From Atractiella rhizophila (taxonomy: Eukaryota), in NCBI GenBank assembly GCA_021432655.1, contig MU271284.1, positions 62,001-103,380 on the forward strand: DNA of 41,380 bases. The letters are read 5' to 3'. Under the pieces are notes generated by a model, which did not search any database, was not told where the DNA came from, and saw only the letters and a program-made list of their open reading frames with translations. Positions 1,478-19,944 of this stretch are shown one piece after another. The translations under genes were made by a program, and so were the position numbers. The stretch's first letter is position 1. Every line of letters begins with the position of its first letter.

Positions 1478-2112
1478 TAGTCGTCCCTAATTTCCCTTCG
1501 GCCATCCTCCTTGTCACGCTGTCACCTCATTGAACACATCACTACCTCCCGATTTCCGATCACAACCCGTCCCCGAAAAGAAAATAAAACGACGAACAAA
1601 ATCCGTACTGCCGATCGAGCACAAGAAGAAGAAAAAAGAAGGAATAAATTCACTGTTTGAAGCAGAAGAAGAAGTATTGATTGGTTGGTTGGCATCGAAT
1701 CTTTCAAGTCTAATCGAGTACAATCTCAAAGAAGAGGAACATTTCAAGTCTGAGTCTGATGATGTTGGATGTACATGTGCCTCAGTTTCTGTTCCAAGTT
1801 CGTCCCTTACTACTACTATATTCTTACCCTGTAGACTCTTTCCTTCTTCCCTTCCCTTCCTCCCTTTTTTATATTTCCCTCTCTCGACAATTTTGTTGGT
1901 GTGCGTACCCTTGGTCAATGAACTGGCTTTTGAACCAGGATGTGAGGCATTGGACTATAGATATTCACATTTGCGACATCAGCATGAATCTTAACGATCT
2001 CAACAGGTATGGTATTCACTCAAATTCAGATCGGATAGATGGATAGGATAAATCCCTGGTCAAAAAATGGGGCACGTGCAATTACTGATGCCGGAAGCAA
2101 ACTCTCGAGGAG

Positions 2113-2127
2113 GGAACTTTCCAGAGT
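2113..2127. promoter_or_regulatory. Putative heat-shock element (nGAAnnTTCnnGAGn)
   Basis: gGAActTTCcaGAGt lies about 75 bp upstream of the ATG of the Hsp90 co-chaperone p23, with one mismatch to a three-unit HSE. Confidence 0.4.
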
Positions 2128-2201
2128 TCGCGTCGTCTGTGTGCAGAAGAACGACCAACACCTAACCCTCACTCTTCCCATCCGCGACATATCCTTTCTA
2201 A

Positions 2202-3250
2202 ATGTCAGCCACTCCCACCGCCCAGCCCGAAGTGCTCTGGGCACAGCGATCGAGGCAGGTCATTTTCTGGTCCCTCGTCAAATGAACAACTTTTATTGAT
2301 GTTCGATGTGGTGGCTCGCAGCGATGTGGACGCTAACAGGAACGTCATCTGGCTCACCATCTCCGTACCTGACCTGGATCCGAGTTCTGTCAAGGTGGAA
2401 TGGACGAATCCTTCCCATCTCAGATTCGAAGGCACTTCGAACCCTCCGCACATGCAGAAAGGCTCGACAGCTTCTCAGGTCGAGAAGAAACACTTTGTGT
2501 TCGATTACGACCTCTTTGGAGAGGTGGAGGAAGTGACAGAAAAGAGGAGGCTGACAAATAAGAGCTTGATTTTGACGGTTAAGAAGAAGGAGCTGACGGA
2601 GGAGTATTGGCCAAGGTTGATCAAGGAGAAGAAGAAGGTTCAAACCATCAAGTACGCTTTTTCTCTTGTTGTTCTTACACCGGGTGGAGTGTTCATTATC
2701 CTTTTTCACGGACAGAACCGATTTTTCCAAGGTACACTGGTTATTATACTCCTGACCATGTTGCTGAAAGTCCAAGTGTAGTGGAAGGATCAAGATGAGC
2801 AGAACGATGAAGAGGAGCCAGAAGAGGACATGGGAGGCATGGGAGGTATGGGAGGTATGGGAGGCATGCCAGGAATGGGAGGAGGCGGAGGTATGGGAGG
2901 CATGAATCGTACGTCGTTTAAAGATCTTCCACTCGCAAGCCTTACCAATTTTCTCATCAGCGGAAGACATGGCAAGTACGTTTATCCTTTGATCTCCCTC
3001 TGCTACGACCATAATAATGTTCTGTGGACGTGTAGAAATGATGGAACAGTTCAAGGCTGGAGGAGGTGTTGGAGGAGATGCTGATTTCGGAGACGATTCG
3101 GATGAGGAATTTGAGGACGATGAGGAAGATGAAGAAGGAGAGGGTAAGGAGAAGAAGAAGGATGACGATGCCGATCTTCCCCCTCTAGAAGTTCGTCCTT
3201 ATTCCTCCTCTCCCTCCCCTCGTTCGCTTACTTCTGTTTTGCAACAGTGA
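2202..3250 (+). CDS. SBA1: Hsp90 co-chaperone p23 (CS domain, GGM-repeat and acidic tail)
   Basis: PEVLWAQRS, YWPRLIKEKKK, KTDFSKWKDQDE, GGM repeats and the ending LPPLE*. Contains 16-nt and 15-nt exons; the first intron (2255-2321) is GC-AG. Confidence 0.9.
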
Positions 3251-4027
3251 CACCTTACATGATCGAGGACTTGCTTGGATCGAACGCTCTTGAAACTCGC
3301 CTTACACCGTCTGTTGTGTAGCTATCGACAAGAAATAGCGAAAAATAAAATGTCCCATTTATTGTTACATCAGCTCACATCCTTCAAGTCGCACGCTCGG
3401 ATTCATCTCTCCATCGGGAGCCTGATCAAAAGTAGCTGAATTACGCAACCGTCCATTCAAACAGTCTCAATATCCGACGTCTATGTGTTTGAAAGAGAGC
3501 GATAAATATACGTAGGATAAGATGTTGTCACAGGCACTGAATAAATGAAGCGGTACAGGATGTCGATGATGAGCCTGAGACGGGAGCTACAAAGGAAGTA
3601 AAGCAAGAACAGCAAAAAACGGCCGTGTGTTCAACTTCTCGAGATTGTCCAATTCCACGAGAATGAGGCGGAAGATTAGGGAGCCAAGATGGGACACGAG
3701 TGTTTGCCGATATCATCTCTCTGAAAACGATGATATGGACGATGTTGAAGGGTCGCTGATGGGGGTGCGAATGGCAGAGAAGAATATGAAGGAGCGTAGA
3801 CGGTGAGAAAGAAATGTGTGATTTAAAGGTGGCGACGGCCGCACTTGGAAAAAGGAGAGTGTTAGTTAAAGAGAGGATGAGCGCTGACGAGCTGTGGTCC
3901 ATGGTGCGAGAAACATCTAAAACGGAAAGGGAACGAAGAACAGAGTCCCTTCGCACGTAGTCAGTATTTCATTTCGACGGGCTGAGAGAATAAGAATGGC
4001 GCACAGGGATTCCTACAAGGAATGAGT

Positions 4028-5136
4028 TTAGGACACCGGGGGATAGTCTTCGTCTTCCTTCGGCAGCCTCCGCTGAACCACCACAAAATAACATCAGCAA
4101 GACTAGAAACTCGTGACGGCAGAAAGGAAGGCGAACTTTGCCTAACCCGACTCCGACACTTATTGTATCCAGAGCAAGCGTGGCATTCACTGTGATACCC
4201 AGGAGGTTCACATCCTGTATAATCATTAGAAGGAGGCGATGAGAGAACACAAGATACTTACTACGCTACTGTAGACCATAATCACAGACGTGGTGAGTAA
4301 AAGATTGGGGTCAGTTCATCATGATGCGACTTACATGCTGCTGATAACGACGTCAGCAAACACACATGATCGATGGAACGAGAGGACACTCACTCGCTGT
4401 CGGCGGAAAAATGGTCCAATTCAGCAATAACTCAGCACATGAGCGGGCAAACTCACCTACTGTAAGAGCAACAGTGGTCAGCCCAGAAATCAACAAAAGA
4501 AAGTTTGTGGAAGAAGAACTTACTCTCTATTCAATAGAATCATGACAAGCGGGTCGCGGTGACCTTGATAAGCAGGCTTTTGGCACTAGAAAGTATAAAC
4601 TTACGCGCTGCGATGGAATGTCGCCGTCAGCACTATCCTACGTAACGGAGAGGGAGGGGAGGCTCACCAGCTGCGACGAAGAATAAGCATCGAGCACAGT
4701 CAATGTTCTGATTGCAATGATGAAACAATGCTTACCCGCTGATACAGACGTCAGCAAAGATGCAAAAATAGAGAAACACACGTACCTTCTGCAATTCGCA
4801 ATTCGAGGAATCACAAGCAGTGAGATTAGTTGATTATTTAGAGCGTTGCACTTACTCCCTATCGCGGAATCAGACTTCAATTCTGTCAATCGAGGGACGG
4901 AGACCTACCAACTGGGGCCCACCAGAACAAGGACGCTCCGTCAGAGGTAAGAAATTATGGCATGAACAACAGCGCACCATCGAGCCTTTATCCTCCTGTC
5001 GCCAATGTGTCAATGATTTACTCAGGTCGAAACACAAGTTAACTTACGCTGCTGGGCTAGATTCAGGGGAGGCAGCCAAGGCGAGCTGACTGGTCCACAG
5101 TCCCAAAGCGAGAGAGATGAGAGCAGCAGGGCGCAT
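4028..5136 (-). CDS. Secreted 89-aa prepro-peptide encoded by a 15-exon micro-exon gene
   Basis: Exons (minus strand): 5136-5048, 4995-4978, 4911-4909, 4858-4856, 4788-4786, 4738-4736, 4670-4668, 4607-4605, 4526-4524, 4459-4457, 4396-4394, 4340-4335, 4268-4262, 4214-4137, 4072-4028. All 14 introns are GT..YAG and 47-78 nt long. The joined frame is open: MRPAALISLALGLWTSQLALAASPESSPAARIKARCWESGCADSDSISVDVNLLGITVNATLALDTISVGVGLGKRRLPKEDEDYPPVS*. Confidence 0.8.
4262..4911 (-). other. Array of nine consecutive 3-nt exons (TTG, GGA, AAG, CGG, CTG, CGC, AGA, TAG, CGA) followed by 6-nt and 7-nt exons
   Basis: A YAG-NNN-GT unit recurs every 50-80 nt. The donors following the eleven exons are GTAGGT, GTAAGT (x5), GTACGT, GTAAGC, GTGAGC and GTGAGT (x2). 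Branch-like motifs (GCTGAC, CTAAT, TTGAC) lie upstream of most acceptors. Confidence 0.85.
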
Positions 5137-6124
5137 TGTGGATTTTTCGAAAGTGATGATGTACAAAAACAAAGTGAAAGAGGCCGAAATGAAGGAGGGG
5201 AAGGGCCAGGAGCGAGCAGATCGAAAAGATAACGTCGAAGGCAGGCTGCGAGGGCGGGAAAAAGTGAGGGTGCCAGGCGGCGGGGATATTATACCACTTT
5301 TTGGACCGCTGTTCGCGAATTCGACCGCCTTGTAATTAGAAGTTTTGGCGCCGTCCGTTTACATGAAATTGTTGCGTGCCGTTCCCCGTCCTTTCTTTGG
5401 AACGTTGAGAGCTTTCTTACTCGACAAAGGCAGAAGATGGAAGTATTCTCAGTGCTCGTTGCATTCAAGAAAGAGGATTATCCACCGTGAAGAACCACTT
5501 AGAAGATGTAACTTGAGCAGAGGCAGTGGTCAAAAAATCGTCAAGGTGATGGCAGGACAACAGTTGCTGAAGCGAGAATTTAGCGAACTCCGGACTTGGA
5601 ATGGTGGAACGCCACAAGAAACTACGCCCGAAGTATTTCTGTCCTTACAACCGAGCAGGAAGGTCCTCCATTCAATCTCAGCCAATCACGCTGCCCGAGT
5701 TGATCGAAACCCGAAGAGGTTCGCAGACAGCAGCTTTGAGGTTCGTCTCTTGAGTGCTGAAAAGGAATACATGTTGTCTTCCCCGGCGTTCACTAAGCGA
5801 GCAGAAGTATTCGGAGGTGTGATGGACCATGTGCTAAGATCCGCAAATTTGGGACTATTCTGAAGCAATCGGGTTATTTGAAAATCATTCATTAACAAAC
5901 CTTACTTTGCTTGTCCAAGGCTCGTCATGTGATTCTAGGAAGCTCTGCACTTTTTGAGTGATCGCGGAGTTGGAGTTGATCGAGACTTTGGGATTGGGAT
6001 CCAGTATCGGGAGAGCAGGAAAAGAGAGCTACGAACCGCAGTAAATGTTTCATTATCAGCATTTCTTCCATGCGTTAACCTGAGTTGACGAGCAGGATAA
6101 GGCACAAACATCTGTGAAATCATC

Positions 6125-9284: not shown

Positions 9285-10457
<1,173 letters not shown>

Positions 10458-12393: not shown

Positions 12394-15300
12394 ATGGTGT
12401 CTAAGTCCCACAGGCGTCTTGACTTGAGGAAGGCCAATTTGGCGGCTGTTCAAGGTGCGATGTCCTTCCACGAGCGTGCACTTTGTATCTGACGCCTATT
12501 CGTTGGTAGATGTTCCCTCCACCCCACCGCTTGGTAGCTCAAAGCTCGACTCCTCTCTTAAACGCCACACTGCTCTCATTAAAAAGCTCAAAACTTCCCT
12601 CCACAGCGCTCCGTCGGCGGAGTTCATTAAAGAGATCAAAGGGTTGACCATAATGAAATACATGGAGGAAGTCGTCAGTGCGGTCGTGGAGGGCACGGGG
12701 AAATGTAGGAAGGAAGGAGAGGTGCAAGGAGCTGTCGAGGTGCGTTTCCACTCAACTTGACTTGAAATGGAGCGACGCGGAACTGTTTCCGTTACGTCCA
12801 TTCATAACCACCTGGGTTGTTTCAATGTCCAAGCATAAGCCCCCCTGTCTGTCACATCCATTAGGTATGCTGCCATTGATGGGCTGCTCTCTCGAATATA
12901 ACCGGGCTTCCCGACATTCTTCATGGCCTGTCAATAATTAATGCGCGCGCAGGAGAATAATACGCGCCATTCACTATATTTGCCAACCGTGAGAACGCTG
13001 CGTTATTCTCGAAAAGTGACTAGCCTCGCTAAAGCCCTCAGGACCGTTGATCCTGACACGCTCCATGTCAATTCTACAAAGTCTCACTAAATTAGCCAAG
13101 ACCGGCAGCTAACAGAATTATGTAGGTCATGTCCGCGATGCACCAACGCTTTCCAACACTGTTCACGCCGCCATTAACCGCAAACTTCCTCTCTCTTCTA
13201 GCACCCAGCAAAGCCTCTGCTAGTGCAGCGCCTGAACAACGGGAGAAGGAAGATACCGCAAGAGTTTCTCGCCAACGAGTACTTCTACGCATTTTCGCAG
13301 AACTCGAGCTCGTCGGTTTGGTGATGACGCCCACTGGACCAACAAAGAATGAGGGCGAAAACACATTTCAAATAATTAAAGAACTCGTACGTTGTCCTCT
13401 TCCCAGAACCACCAGAGAGGAGCTGATAGTGCAATTACTGGTGTAAAGTTGACGGCAGACAAGGAGGCGCTCCTCCTTTCCATTCCTGTAGCTACGGCGT
13501 TCGCTAAGCAATTGGGAAATCTATTCCTTCCAAGCAGTGCAGACAACCCCCCTCTTGTTGATGATGCAGACAATTCACTTGGAGACGAAGATATCATCCC
13601 CGTTCCCATGAAAGAAAAGTTCAAGAAACTTTTCACGCAGTATTATGATGCTCTGAGCAGGAGGGCTGTCAAGGAGAACCTTGTTCGCTATCCGGTTGTT
13701 CGAACAGCTTAGGCTGACTGGTTTGAAACAGTTCATGAAGGAAACGGACCGCCGGAATCACGAAGCATACATTCGCTCGGGTCAAATTTTTGAGGATCGA
13801 GCTCAGAATTACGAGACTCTGGCCAAGTCCTTTGAGAAGCTATGGGCTGGCGTGACGAGGTTTGTTCTCCGCCTCTATCGAACACAATCTACAGTCTGAA
13901 TATGTACCTGCAGCCTCTCAGAAGTCTTGGGAACATCCGTGCCTGAGCTGCCTTCCCTTCCTTCAACGACAATTACTTCTACTATTTCTTTTGGAGGCTC
14001 TACTGGTGGACCGACCGAAGGAGAAGGTGTGGGTAGCATCTGGGCTGATGAAGAAGAGCGGAAGTTTTACGAGGACATCGTGGACCTCAAAGGCGAAGTT
14101 CCTGGGAGCGTCCTTGTTTCCACCCAACAACCGCAGACCAGTAATGCGCCAGCCAAACTTACTTCCGTCCCAGAACCTATCAAGGCAGAAGAGGCAGAAG
14201 ACGACGATGACGCGTACGTTTTCCAGACCTCGTTCAGTCACCAAATTGAACTTGTATTTGGACAGACCTCCAACCTTAAAAGAAGATCCTGAGGAAGCTC
14301 TCCCTCCCGCTCCCGCCGCACAGTTGCAAGCTATACTCGCCCGACTGCCAGAGTGTACAAGTCGAGCAACCATCGACAAAGCTGCTGTTGATTTCGCTTT
14401 CTTGAATAGCAAACCGGCGAGAAAACGCCTGACAAGAGTACGTATTGTACGAAATGTTTGAATCAAGCTTAATATCCAACAGTTCTTAGCCTCCGTTAGC
14501 AGGAATCGTACCGACTTGTTGCCGTACTATGCTCGGCTGACAGCGACGCTGAGCAAGTATATGCCGGATATTGGGAGTGGGTTGATTGCTGCAGTGAGTT
14601 AACACCTTTCCGTTGACACTGATTTTGATTATTCCGTGAAGCTAGAAGACGAATTCCGCTACCTGCAAAGGAAAAAAAGCGTCAATCTTGCTGAAACGAG
14701 AGCGAAGGTTAGTACATCCTTGTGCATCACTTGTCGCGGCTGAAGCAACGTAGAACACGCGCTACCTTGCAGAGCTCACCAAATTCAAGATCACGCCAAA
14801 CCATCTCATCCTTTTCTGCATCAAGTCGTGTGTCGATGACCTTACCGGACCCAATGTTGACAATCTCTGTAATCTCCTGGAAGGCTCTGGTCGCTTCTTA
14901 CTAAAATCTGAAGCGACTGGAGAGAAGACTGCTTCTCTGGTTGGTATTCTGACTCTACTATATCTAGCAAAGATTCATTAGGCCCGAATAGTTGGACGTG
15001 ATGAAACGGAAAAAGGCGGCTCAAAATTTCACCCATCAGCAAATAACTATGTTGGAAAATGCTTATTACCAGGTTGGTAGTGACGACAATTTGTGCGGCT
15101 AGCTCATAAGCTCGTTCAGTGCGATCCGCCAGACAGAGTCGTTATCCCGCCAAAGGAAAGAACGCCAATGGAGCTGTTTTTGCGGCACCTGTTTTTCAAT
15201 GTCTTGACCAAAAAGACGATCGACTCCGTGATAAAGACGTTGAGAAAGATGCATTGGGAGGATCCCAAGGTAAGCGTTAATTTAGACCCCGATATGCAGC

Positions 15301-18300
15301 TCAGCTCCGTGCAGATATTTCAGTTGCTTGTGTCGCACTTTACCAAAGTTTGGAAAGCTAAATTCAGCAATATTCATCTGTTTGCCATCCTTCTTCATGA
15401 TCTATCAAAGTTTCACCCGGACTTTCACGTCGTGGTTGTCGATCAAGTGCTGGAGAATCTAAAAGTCGGTATGGAAGTATGTAACTTCCTAAACCTGTCT
15501 ACACAGTCTTATTTCTCTCTCAAGGTCAATAACTTTAAATACAATCAGCAGAGGATCGCCACCATCAAGTACATCGGCGAGATGTACAACTATCGCGTCA
15601 TCGATTCGAAAGTCGTTCTCGATGTGCTATGGACCCTCACCATGTTTGGACACCGTGCGTCTCGACTTTCCGTCCCTAACCTGATTAAATGCTATTTCCA
15701 GCTGGAAATCGCCCATCACCTGAGGATCCTTCTTTACGAGATGCCGCCGATGATTTCTTTAGAGTCCGGTTGACGTGCACTCTTCTGGACACTTGCGGAT
15801 CATGCTTTGATCGAGGACAGCTCAGAAAGAAGCTTGACCATTTTCTCATCTTCTTCCAGGTAGTTCCCTTTCACTGCTTGAACATACCATTCTAACAATA
15901 TATGCCTCAGATGTACATTCTTGCGAAGCAAACTCCACCAATGGATGTCGGCTTTATGATCAACGACACTTTTGATGTTAGTTCGTTTATCTTCCGGTCC
16001 CGTCGACTAACGATGTCAGCTAGTCATTACGCCCCAAGATGACGATGATGAAGACATACGAGGAAGCTTCGAATGCAGTAGACAACATGGTTGCCGCTAA
16101 TCAGGCTGCCGTAGAATCCCACGAGCCTGGTGTGTAACATCATGCAGTTCGGCGTGATCTCACAGCATTTTAGCTGAAGAAGAGCTCGATGACGATGCAT
16201 CAGATGGAGAAGTCGATATTGCCAGTGATCCCATGGAACTAGCTTCAGACAGCGAGTCAAGCGATGAAGCTGAAGAAGACGTATGTGATTATTCTTGGCC
16301 ATACAATTAATCTGAAATCCGGTATGCGTAGCCTGATGCTCATGAGGCCGAAAGGGACGAGAGTGAAGACGAAGACGAGATGGAAATTGGTCGAAACACC
16401 TCCTACGGTCCTACTGTAATCACCAGAGAAGAGCTAATAATGCAATTATTGGTGTAAAGTTGACGGCAGACAAGGAGGCGCTCCTCCTTTCCATTCCTGT
16501 AGCTACGGCTTTCGCTAAGCAATTGGGCAATCTATTCCTTCCAAGCAGTGCAGACAACCCCCCTCTTGTTGATGATGCAGACAATTCACTTGGAGACGAA
16601 GATATCATCCCCGTTCCCATGAAAGAAAAGTTCAAGAAACTTTTCACGCAGTATTATGATGCTCTAAGCAGGAGGGCTGTCAAAGAGAACCTTGTTCGCT
16701 ATCCCGTTGTTCGAACAGCTTAGGCTGACTGGTTTGAAACAGTTCATGAAGGAAACGGACCGCCGGAATCACGAAGCATACATTCGCTCAGGTCAAATTT
16801 TCGAGGATCGAGCTCAGAATTACGAGACTCTGGCCAAGTCCTTTGAGAAGCTATGGGCTGGCGTGACGAGGTTTGTTCTCCGCCTCTATCGAACACAATC
16901 TACAGTCTGAATATGTACCTGCAGCCTCTCAGAAGTCTTGGGAACATCCGTGCCTGAGCTGCCTTCCCTTCCTTCAACGACAATTACTTCTACTATTTCT
17001 TTTGGAGGCTCTACTGGTGGACCGACCGAAGGAGAAGGTGTGGGTAGCATCTGGGCTGATGAAGAAGAGCGGAAGTTTTACGAGGACATCGTGGACCTCA
17101 AAGGCGAAGTTCCTGGGAGCGTCCTTGTTTCCACCCAACAACCGCAGACCAGTAATGCGCCAGCCAAACCTACTTCCGTCCCAGAACCTATCAAGGCAGA
17201 AGAGGCAGAAGACGACGATGACGCGTACGTTTTCCAGACCTCGTTCAGTCACCAAGTGGAACTTGTATTTGGACAGACCCCCAACCTTAAAAGAAGATCC
17301 TGAGGAAGCCCTCCCTCCGGCTCCCGCCGCACAGTTGCAAGCTATACTCGCCCGACTGCCAGAGTGTACAAGTCGAGCAACCATCGACAAAGCTGCTGTT
17401 GATTTCGCTTTCTTGAATAGCAAACCGGCGAGAAAACGCCTGACAAGAGTATGTGTTGGACGAAATGTCTGAGCCAAGCTTAACGTCCAACAGTTCTTAG
17501 CCTCCGTTAGCAGGAATCGTACCGACTTGTTGCCCTACTATGCCCGACTGACTGCGACGCTGAGCAAGTACATGCCGGATATTGGGAGTGGGTTGATTGC
17601 TGCAGTGAGTTAACACCTTTCTGTTGACACTGATTTGATTATTGCCTGAAGCTGGAAGACGAATTCCGCTACCTGCAGAGGAAAAAAAGTGTCAATCTTG
17701 CCGAAACGAGAGCGAAAGTTAGTATATCCTTGTGCATCACTCATGGCGGCTGAAGCAACCTAGAACACCCGTTACCTTGCAGAGCTCACCAAATTCAAGA
17801 TCACGCCAAACCATCTCATCCTTTTCTGCATCAAGTCGTGTGTCGATGACCTTACCGGACCCAATGTTGACAATCTCTGTAATCTCCTGGAAGGCTCTGG
17901 TCGCTTCTTACTAAAATCTGAAGCGACCGGGGAGAAGACTGCTTCCCTCGTTGGTATTTTGACTCTACTATATCTAGCAAAGGTTCATGAGGCCCGAATA
18001 GTTGGAGGTGATGAAACGGAAAAAGGCGGCTCAAAATTTCACCCATCAGCAAATCACTATGTTGGAAAATGCTTATTACCAGGTTGGTAGTGACGACAAT
18101 TGTGCGGCTAGCTCATAAGCTCGTTCAGTGCGATCCGCCAGACAGAGTCGTTATCCCGCCAAAGGAAAGAACGCCAATGGAACTGTTTTTGCGGCACCTG
18201 TTTTTCAATGTCTTGACCAAAAAGACGATCGACTCCGTGATAAAGACGTTGAGAAAAATGCATTGGGAGGATCCCAAGGTTAGCGTTTATTCAGGCCCTT

Positions 18301-19944
18301 ATATGCAGTATGCAGCTCAACTCTGTGCAGATATTTCAGTTGCTTGTGTCGCACTTTACGAAAGTTTGGAAAGCTAAATTCAGCAATATTCATCTGTTCG
18401 CTATCCTTCTTCATGATTTATCAAAGTTTCATCCGGACTTTCACGTTGTGGTCGTCGATCAAGTGCTGGAGAACCTAAAAATCGGTATGGAAGTATGTAA
18501 CTTCTTAAACGTCTCTACACAGTCTTATTTCTCTCTCAAGGTCAATAACTTTAAATACAATCAGCAGAGGATCGCCACCATCAAGTACATTGGCGAGATG
18601 TACAACTATCGCGTTATCGATTCGAAAGTCGTTCTCGATGTGCTCTGGACCCTCACTATGTTTGGACATCGTGTGTCTCGACTTTGCGTCCCTAACCTGA
18701 TTAAATGCTATTTCCAGCTGGAAATCGCCCATCACCTGAGGATCCTTCTTTACGAGATGCTGCCGATGATTTCTTTAGAGTCCGGTTGACGTGCACTCTT
18801 CTGGACACTTGCGGATCATGCTTTGATCGAGGACAGCTCAGAAAGAAGCTTGACCATTTTCTCATCTTCTTCCAGGTAGTTCCCTTTCACTGCTTGAACA
18901 TACCATTCTAACAATATATGCCTCAGATGTACATTCTTGCGAAGCAAACTCCACCAATGGATGTCGGCTTTATGATCAACGACACTTTTGATGTTAGTTC
19001 GTTTATCTTCCTGTCCCGTCGACTAATGATGTCAGCTAGTCATTACGCCCCAAGATGACGATGATGAAGACATACGAGGAAGCTTCGAATGCTGTAGACA
19101 ACATGGTTGCCGCTAATCAGGCTGCCGTAGAATCCCACGAGCCTGGTGTGTAACATCATGCAGTTCGGCGTGATCTCACAGCATTTTAGCTGAAGAAGAG
19201 CTCGATGATGATGCATCAGATGGAGAAGTCGATATTGCCAGTGATCCCATGGAACTAGCTTCAGACAGCGAGTCAAGCGATGAAGCTGAAGAAGACGTAT
19301 GTGATTATTCTTGGCCATACAATTAATCTGAAATCCGGTATGCGTAGCCTGATGCTCATGAGGCCGAAAGGGACGAGAGTGAAGACGAAGACGAGATGGA
19401 AATTGGTCGAAACACCTCCTACGGTCCTACTGTTGAGGATGAAGAAGAATTCGAAAGGGAACTGGCGAAGATGATGATTGACACTAGTGATTCTAGAAAG
19501 GCCGCGAATGAAAAGAGAACGGCCCTCGCAGATGTGGCGTTGCCAGTTTGGAAGAAAAAGGAAAAGATCCGGGATGAAGAACTGGATGATGAGGAGGATG
19601 GGCTTCAACACATGAAGTTCACGGTACTGACAAAGAAAGGGAACAAAAATCAGGTACGCTATTCTTCCCCCAATTCGACGAAATCTAATTAGTTGTAGAC
19701 ACGGACGCTGCAAGTACCTGTCGATAGTGCTATCGCTGTACACACTCGAAGCAAACAAGAGCAAGTGAGGGCAGAACAGCAGCAGCTCAAAAAGCTTGTC
19801 TTGGAGTTCGAAGAAAGAGAGGAAGCTCAGGAGAAGAAGAGTGAGTGATGCAGATGACCTGGGCTTTTTTGACAACGTCTTTCAGGTCTGCAAGAAAGTA
19901 TGGCGAAGAGAGGTATCAGAATCAAGTACGGTGAACCAGCATAA
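12394..19944 (+). CDS. UPF2: Nonsense-mediated decay factor Upf2 (MIF4G domains), carrying an internal 3-kb tandem duplication
   Basis: LDSSLKRHTALIKKLK, HEAYIRSGQIFEDR, IWADEEERKFYEDIVDLK, IDKAAVDFAFLNSK, DDFFRVRLTCTLLDTCG, and a C-terminal Upf1-binding-like region FTVLTKKGNKNQTR. Confidence 0.9.
12762..13071 (+). other. Structured intronic element bounded by a 13-nt imperfect inverted repeat in UPF2 intron 2
   Basis: ttgaaatggagcg (12762-12774) pairs with cgctccatgtcaa (13059-13071) at 12 of 13 positions, and several internal hairpins lie between them. Confidence 0.45.
13407..19433 (+). repeat. Tandem direct duplication: unit 1 13407-16417 (3011 bp), unit 2 16418-19433 (3016 bp)
   Basis: The two units align along their whole length with scattered substitutions and small indels. 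The junction reads cctactgt|aatcaccagag. Confidence 0.97.

Follow-up and report, generated by a model that had tools for sequence, protein, structure and literature searches.

Can a gene be read through a run of exons that are each a single codon's length, and in what order are the introns between them then removed? The question is raised by a locus on the minus strand of a 41,380-nucleotide (nt) stretch of the Atractiella rhizophila genome (contig MU271284.1, positions 62,001 to 103,380 of the forward strand), which we call the window and in whose coordinates all positions are given. Between 5136 and 4005 lies an 89-codon frame divided among 15 coding exons, nine consecutive ones of which are 3 nt long. 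A first-pass annotation, made from the letters alone, had predicted this run. We confirm that it is real, expressed and spliced as predicted, with the spliced chain carried by RNA-derived contigs from three studies.

For the RNA evidence, public runs were searched with positions 3900-5300, and the four best (X1-X4) were aligned as contigs to 3700-5500. Runs X5-X24, with small word shares, contribute nothing to the results below. The aligned sequences are Logan contigs, built from 31-letter words, which lose rare forms and give no isoform ratios. X4 is on record as a metatranscriptome, and the RNA status of X1-X3 is only guessed.

A run of eleven micro-exons

The strand was read from 5400 to 3900 and parsed by script, which gave 16 exons in total, the last of them 3′ untranslated region (UTR). 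The nine 3-nt exons are followed by one of 6 nt and one of 7 nt, making eleven consecutive micro-exons that supply 40 nt of messenger RNA (mRNA). Exactly three bases separate AG from GT at all nine 3-nt sites. The first-pass annotation had described a chain of canonical 47-78-nt introns around these triplets, and the parse agrees: introns 1-13, from exon 1 to exon 14, have these lengths and all begin with GT and end with AG, and the coordinates and letters of that annotation are all present in the sequence. GT..AG ends are likewise found in 15 of 15 introns of the gene, every one of them RNA-supported and 47-78 nt long. The parts of the gene are as follows.

5048..5136 (minus): exon 1, 89 nt; start codon 5136-5134; signal-peptide-like hydrophobic N-terminus; RNA contigs X1-X4
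4996..5047 (minus): intron 1, 52 nt, GTAAGT..CAG; phase 2; spliced out in X3 record 16
4978..4995 (minus): exon 2, 18 nt; its letters occur in two loose ends, that of X3 before 5047 and that of X1 behind 4859
4912..4977 (minus): intron 2, 66 nt, GTGCGC..CAG; sequence and RNA
4909..4911 (minus): 3-nt exon TTG; sequence and RNA (X3, X1)
4859..4908 (minus): intron 3, 50 nt, GTAGGT..TAG; sequence and RNA
4856..4858 (minus): 3-nt exon GGA; sequence and RNA (X3, X1)
4789..4855 (minus): intron 4, 67 nt, GTAAGT..CAG; kept in one X1 contig
4786..4788 (minus): 3-nt exon AAG; sequence and RNA
4739..4785 (minus): intron 5, 47 nt, GTACGT..CAG; 3′ end like that of intron 11 (19/21 nt)
4736..4738 (minus): 3-nt exon CGG; sequence and RNA
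4671..4735 (minus): intron 6, 65 nt, GTAAGC..CAG; sequence and RNA
4668..4670 (minus): 3-nt exon CTG; sequence and RNA
4608..4667 (minus): intron 7, 60 nt, GTGAGC..CAG; sequence and RNA
4605..4607 (minus): 3-nt exon CGC; sequence and RNA
4527..4604 (minus): intron 8, 78 nt, GTAAGT..TAG; the longest; without CTRAY; kept in contigs of X1 (record 3) and X4 (loose end behind 4214) from which adjacent introns are gone
4524..4526 (minus): 3-nt exon AGA; sequence and RNA
4460..4523 (minus): intron 9, 64 nt, GTAAGT..CAG; sequence and RNA
4457..4459 (minus): 3-nt exon TAG; CAG in the X4 relative, synonymous (GAT>GAC)
4397..4456 (minus): intron 10, 60 nt, GTGAGT..CAG; sequence and RNA
4394..4396 (minus): 3-nt exon CGA; sequence and RNA
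4341..4393 (minus): intron 11, 53 nt, GTGAGT..CAG; sequence and RNA
4335..4340 (minus): 6-nt exon CAGCAT; sequence and RNA; present in the public model
4269..4334 (minus): intron 12, 66 nt, GTAAGT..CAG; the public model P0002 (below) starts at an ATG within the matching intron
4262..4268 (minus): 7-nt exon TAGCGTA; present in the public model; shifts phase 2 to 0
4215..4261 (minus): intron 13, 47 nt, GTAAGT..CAG; sequence and RNA
4137..4214 (minus): exon 14, 78 nt; hydrophobic stretch with an N-A-T site
4073..4136 (minus): intron 14, 64 nt, GTTCGC..CAG; joint 4072>4137 in X1, X3 and X4
4005..4072 (minus): exon 15, 68 nt; last 14 codons, stop TAA 4030-4028, 23 nt of 3′ UTR
3949..4004 (minus): intron 15, 56 nt, GTGCGC..AAG, in the 3′ UTR; joint 3947>4004 (cut +1) in X1, X2 and X4
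3726..3948 (minus): exon 16, 3′ UTR; X4 record 17, X3 record 12; contigs continue below 3700

Among introns 1-14, which were checked for a CTRAY branch-like motif, 10 of 14 have one 11-42 nt from the 3′ end, and introns 1, 6, 8 and 10 have none. By their ends, by length together with CTRAY and by precise removal in RNA, these introns belong with the short U2-type spliceosomal introns of fungi. The units of one intron plus one 3-nt exon are irregular in length (50-81 nt), and the triplets are unlike one another.

The density of splice-like motifs sets the run apart from its surroundings. Both strands of the window together hold 17 sites of the pattern YAG-NNN-GTRNGY, 10 of them within the 575 nt of minus-strand 4340-4914 (one of the 10 being CAG/CAT/GT within the 6-nt exon). 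From the other seven, about 0.05 sites would be expected per 575 nt, which puts the run at about 200 times the window background. A looser chain search of the window found no other real micro-exon chain. One candidate, at 9539, 9610 and 9664 on the plus strand, was a false positive made of GTATGT motifs within an ordinary coding exon (9286-9790, plus), whose translation we take to be the 20-kDa (PSST-type) subunit of complex I.

RNA contigs cover every junction

Printed letters or joints cover all 15 junctions of the gene, and two loose ends in X3 jointly account for 13 of 13 between exon 1 and exon 14. Record 16 lies on 5047-5428 with 56 extra letters, the 30 printed ones of which, reverse-complemented, read as the rest of exon 2, TTG, GGA, AAG, CGG and the first letter of CTG. 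Record 13 lies on exon 14 with 31 extra letters, which read in the same way as the end of CGG followed by CTG, CGC, AGA, TAG, CGA and the 6-nt and 7-nt exons. Together these ends match the junction string that the first-pass annotation had put forward for a transcript retaining every triplet. One X1 contig runs from exon 2 through TTG and GGA, intron 4, AAG, CGG, CTG and CGC into the start of intron 8, and one X4 contig runs from the last five letters of intron 8 through AGA, CAG, CGA and the 6-nt and 7-nt exons to exons 14, 15 and 16. X1 also has a joint 4214>5047, for which the letters between are not given. The joints of introns 14 and 15 show CT..AC ends on the plus strand, and the transcript therefore lies on the minus strand.

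Depth in X1 is 23-25 over exon 1, 0 at 4249-4492 and 4920-5041, and 0.6-7.8 at 4493-4858, a pattern that fits RNA, not DNA; X2 has no cover within 4066-5041. None of the contigs of the four runs joins 4978 to 4340, 4268 or 4214, so they hold no example of the molecule that the first-pass annotation had named as speaking against it, a complementary DNA (cDNA) linking 4978 to 4214 or 4268 with no triplet in between.

Introns are removed in no fixed order

Partly spliced intermediates are present in two of the runs. In an X4 molecule intron 8 (its end) is retained and introns 9-15 have been removed; in an X1 molecule introns 4 and 8 are retained and introns 2, 3, 5, 6 and 7 have been removed. Retention of intron 4 in X1 is seen in a depth of 3 at 4798-4858, a loose end behind 4859 and a joint 4608>4786, and X1 record 4 (4579-4694) is unspliced over introns 6-8. 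These intermediates show that removal does not proceed strictly 5′ to 3′ or in a set order, and that an intron can be lost before its neighbour 3 nt upstream. The lagging introns 4 (67 nt) and 8 (78 nt) both rank among the three longest of the run, and the branch motif is poorly placed in the former (CTAAT, 37 nt from the end) and missing from the latter.

In the reading that we favour, ordinary U2-type splicing removes this chain, each short GT..AG intron being recognised as a unit. Each triplet directly follows one acceptor and directly precedes the next donor, filling all of the 3 nt between them. Neighbouring introns would thus most likely not be held by two spliceosomes at once and would have to be removed one by one, an argument drawn from the footprint of the spliceosome and from the difficulty that minimal exons pose where splicing works by exon definition. 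The triplets are probably constitutive, and the architecture is more likely a tolerated product of intron evolution than an isoform generator.

The public gene model omits exactly the nine codons

A protein search with the contiguous translation around exon 14 returned one match, P0001, an 80-residue hypothetical protein labelled Atractiella rhizophila; the label names a basidiomycete, and the gene is fungal as had been supposed from the letters. P0001 is the letter-for-letter translation of exons 1 and 2, the 6-nt and 7-nt exons, and exons 14 and 15. The public model takes 4977-4341 as a single intron and loses exactly the nine triplets, as was to be expected from the first-pass claim that gene finders would miss the chain. 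Since 27 nt is a multiple of three, the frame of the public model stays open and the loss is silent.

A HMMER search with P0001 gave a single relative, P0002 (50 residues), from another contig (8,118 nt) of the same species. Its model starts at an ATG within the counterpart of intron 12 and is without the signal peptide, exon 2 and all micro-exons but the 7-nt one. Both changes by which P0002 is recognised (A>G and L>V, positions 4174 and 4178) occur in X3 record 15. One synonymous change aside, the 30 loose letters printed for that record continue from CTG through CGC, AGA, TAG and CGA to the two exons of 6 and 7 nt. At a minimum, then, the last seven micro-exons exist in the second copy, be it an allele or a paralogue, and X3 contigs carry its spliced chain. 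Metagenome matches to a nine-residue degenerate exon 14 pattern, at seven loci, were set aside as chance, with blastn similarity at 0 of 7.

Reading frame and predicted product

The joined frame is open over 89 codons and ends with TAA at 4030-4028, in line with the single stop-free frame claimed to lead from a signal-peptide exon to the downstream exons; both other frames of the spliced RNA are dense with stops. At the transcript's first ATG the sequence is CACAATG; at the other end, 23 nt separate the stop codon from the last exon junction. Introns 1-12 are all in phase 2, twelve same-phase short introns within about 60 nt of mRNA. Retention of 10 of these 12 makes the first codon past the junction a stop (donors of the GTAAGT, GTGAGT and GTAGGT type), so that the whole protein can come from fully spliced RNA only.

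Of ten variant letters evaluated in contigs from relatives, four are synonymous, among them a triplet's TAG>CAG (GAT>GAC), four exchange residues conservatively (S>T, L>V, A>G and L>V), and a single codon of the second copy accounts for the other two. The nine indels listed for the contigs are all outside the reading frame. Together, variants and indels lend modest support to translation of the frame.

Judged from its sequence, the product would be a lineage-specific 89-residue protein with a signal-peptide-like start, secreted or membrane-anchored. Its N-terminus is hydrophobic (Kyte-Doolittle 1.63 over residues 4-22), a Cys-x4-Cys pair is encoded wholly by triplets, and an N-A-T site occurs in the exon 14 part; residues 53-71 form another hydrophobic stretch (1.56), which is followed by K-R-R and then an acidic tail. 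These features would fit a small protein that is secreted and cleaved at the dibasic site, or else a small one that spans the membrane once. A search of the ESM Atlas by features gave no usable match.

Towards its 3′ end, the transcript holds a second open frame at 3531-3902 on the minus strand (about 124 codons, ATG at 3902); Pfam gives no match to this frame, and we regard it as probable non-coding UTR.

Competing explanations

Taken together, we favour with good confidence constitutive, serial, intron-defined splicing in no fixed order, in an expressed nuclear gene of a root-associated basidiomycete. Several points weigh against this reading. X4 alone among the four runs is on record as RNA, X1-X3 being guessed, and contigs that drop rare forms and carry no isoform ratios leave constitutive use not proven. 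The steric argument for removal one at a time is a deduction from spliceosome footprints. The protein is a predicted one. None of its Pfam matches lies below E 0.2, HMMER matched P0001 to nothing beyond this species among 1.84 billion representatives, and the ESM Atlas model has a poor predicted fold (predicted local distance difference test, pLDDT, 0.44). Furthermore, in-frame divergence is about 2.5-8% per contig piece against about 5% in the UTRs; as it is not clearly lower, selection on the protein is weakly supported.

How the chain arose is a separate matter, for which serial unit duplication, subdivision of a long intron and erosion of longer exons are all possible. That it is a neutral relic of duplication, in which a short intron with three exonic bases was copied in tandem and the copies have since diverged, is a possible account that we nevertheless doubt. 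Twelve consecutive phase-2 introns would be its natural outcome, and the 3′ ends of introns 5 and 11, the top-scoring pair, agree at 19 of 21 nt (E 0.026 within the window), but that match is mostly branch-site and acceptor consensus. Tandem Repeats Finder reports no array at the locus, local scoring of the 15 introns in pairs, after removal of the splice consensus, gives a mean of 12.7 against 11.8 (s.d. 2.3) in shuffled sequence, the best pair (24) stays below the shuffled maximum (26), and the unit lengths and triplets vary as described. Rather unlikely, in our judgement, is a stepping-stone origin, a functional counterpart to recursive splicing. The 637 nt that separate exon 2 from the 6-nt exon would act as one long intervening region, and a spliceosome suited to introns of about 50-80 nt would remove it piecewise via in-frame 3-nt exons, one codon's length left per step, under selection for efficient splicing. 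Such an origin would account for a public model that takes 4977-4341 as one in-frame intron, for the narrow length range of all 15 introns, for pieces removed in variable order with intermediates present, and for triplet-encoded residues in a region without predicted fold. However, no relative with an undivided long intron was found, the sole homologue being the second copy with the same chain, and the triplets are identical in both copies where seen, which fits protein constraint too. That the architecture is dedicated, in the sense of having been selected for some purpose, is a conjecture of the first-pass annotation. More generally, we think it unlikely that the chain is a selected serial-splicing device, whether as stepping stones clearing a 760-nt interruption or as a kinetic gate on the output of a secreted protein; in the latter version, a dozen obligatorily sequential splicings, nearly all fail-safe through an immediate stop, would tie output to splicing capacity or time.

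The remaining alternatives question what the spliced RNA is for, or whether it exists. We consider it distinctly unlikely that it is untranslated, a non-coding or regulatory transcript such as a splicing-load sensor or a substrate of nonsense-mediated decay, with an incidental frame. An orphan gene without family, weak sequence constraint and a long 3′ region with its own intron and the further open frame 3902-3531 would suit such a transcript, yet the first ATG opens a signal-peptide-like frame that stays open over 13 junctions and is the only one of three not full of stops, the few variants show an excess of synonymous changes, the listed indels all fall outside the frame, and the 3′ UTR intron comes just 23 nt past the stop. 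An isoform generator of the Schistosoma micro-exon gene (MEG) type, with symmetric triplets skipped in combinations to vary a secreted peptide, seems very improbable, even though the layout is MEG-like, a signal-peptide exon and then symmetric micro-exons, and the form with all triplets skipped is in frame and equals the public model. No skipped form appears in the contigs of the four runs (which drop rare forms), and the triplets seen in the second copy are those of the window. In a skipping test, 328 of 512 triplet subsets were stop-free, fewer than the 426 (s.d. 63) of 88 letter-shuffled controls, and two of the nine single skips created a stop; tolerance of skipping gives no support to isoform diversification. 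Finally, an artefact, chance splice-like motifs in one intron with letters joined by assembly chimeras or a processed DNA copy, is close to untenable. The guessed status of X1-X3 and assembly from 31-letter words would leave room for one, but the 40-letter chain is nowhere contiguous in the window, so that 31-letter words across it can come only from reads of spliced molecules; the chain appears in three studies, one on record as RNA, intermediates with single retained introns indicate ongoing splicing, and the motif density is about 200-fold above background.

Significance

With nine acceptor-donor pairs 3 nt apart, all used in vivo, the locus is a natural substrate for the question of how closely splicing events can be packed and in what order they take place. 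How the spliceosome recognises extremely short micro-exons is listed as still to clarify in the accessible text of a 2026 review (PMC13149111). Twelve same-phase introns in about 60 nt of mRNA are also an extreme test for models of intron gain, intron subdivision and exon erosion. For annotation, the public protein is nine residues short, with the Cys-x4-Cys pair among the losses; exon losses that are multiples of three pass every frame check, and like errors may be common in intron-rich fungi. Were the chain a selected device, similar hidden chains would be expected elsewhere in the genome and in relatives, unseen by current annotation.

Genomic neighbourhood

A biosynthetic-cluster context for a processed peptide was considered and rejected: comparison of 117 stop-to-stop frames with Pfam shows housekeeping neighbours, with matches to Metallophos, Rpb11-like, MIF4G/Upf2, adenosine deaminase, cyclin, ABC-F, Med17, asparaginase_2, STT3 and cyclophilin. 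A tandem duplication of about 3 kb (13407-15592 and 16418-18608, plus strand; start spacing 3009-3016 nt, 95-97% identity) spans frames with the MIF4G domains of the Upf2-like gene and may be a segmental duplication within the gene or an assembly effect.

Upstream of the micro-exon gene, a TATAATAT motif lies at 5286-5293 (minus strand), about 150 nt from the ATG. RNA contigs reach past it, to 5382 in X1 and 5428 in X3, and the transcription start is therefore not fixed by the motif; the upstream contig ends may include a divergent neighbour (5336-5860, plus). At the other end, the first 232 letters of X3 record 12 (1,285 nt) lie on 3700-3927 and the next approximately 1,050 nt run toward lower coordinates, to about 2650, entering an apparent plus-strand gene at approximately 2089-3300 with Gly/Met repeats and an acidic tail. 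The micro-exon transcript and this gene may overlap at their 3′ ends.

Comparison with known systems

In the original description of MEGs, micro-exons reportedly form most of the coding sequence, whereas here they make up 58 of 267 coding nt (22%). The first-pass comparison with these Schistosoma genes is apt for layout: in both, a signal-peptide first exon (here judged from hydropathy) is followed by symmetric micro-exons (here the 18-nt, nine 3-nt and 6-nt exons, the 7-nt exon not being symmetric) and the protein is small and lineage-specific. It does not extend to membership, given the lower coding share, introns of 47-78 nt against up to 5 kb in MEGs, whose exons are of 3-81 base pairs (bp) (PMC10526429, in the portion available), and the lack of any sequence relation to schistosome MEG proteins in the HMMER search, which gave P0002 only. 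Skipped forms were not seen in the contigs of the four runs, which drop rare ones.

Other systems share the crowding of splice signals or the stepwise removal of introns; here, too, we draw on the accessible portions of the cited texts. As in stwintrons (PMC5639578, PMC9024468, PMC6616335), signals lie too close for joint use, the reactions are consecutive and the fungal introns are short and intron-defined; in a stwintron, however, the outer intron has one of its splice signals split by the inner one, with no exonic base left there, whereas here the introns are complete and 3 nt are kept. Recursive splicing (PMC13149111) likewise removes a long region stepwise via internal acceptor-donor pairs, but its zero-nucleotide AG/GU sites lie in very long animal introns, whereas here 3 nt are kept and read as protein at about 50-80 nt per step. 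Human RPS24 has consecutive micro-exons, one of them of 3 nt (3, 18 and 22 bp; PMC12207440); in contrast to the eleven here there are three, which sit at the 3′ end of the frame, are used alternatively and belong to an exon-definition system.

The full-text literature searched, most subscription journals lying outside it, yielded no account of 3-nt exons in a run, and the accessible text of the 2026 review of non-canonical splicing (PMC13149111) mentions none. The closest counterparts are isolated exons of 1-3 nt in other fungi, again as given in the accessible portions of the reports. A long-read annotation of Coprinopsis cinerea holds 27 exons of 3 nt across 26 genes (PMC12230235), so that no gene there has more than two; lipS of Dactylellina haptotyla has two 3-nt exons (PMC5639578), and CYP621A of Fusarium has a 1-nt exon (PMC12940212). 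Like these, the exons described here are flanked by spliceosomal GT..AG introns in an intron-rich fungus and were missed by automatic annotation, and their omission breaks or alters the gene model; unlike them, nine of 3 nt stand in a row, followed by the 6-nt and 7-nt exons, within a gene of 89 codons. The locus is an extreme form of the micro-exons already known from intron-rich fungi, not a new kind of system.

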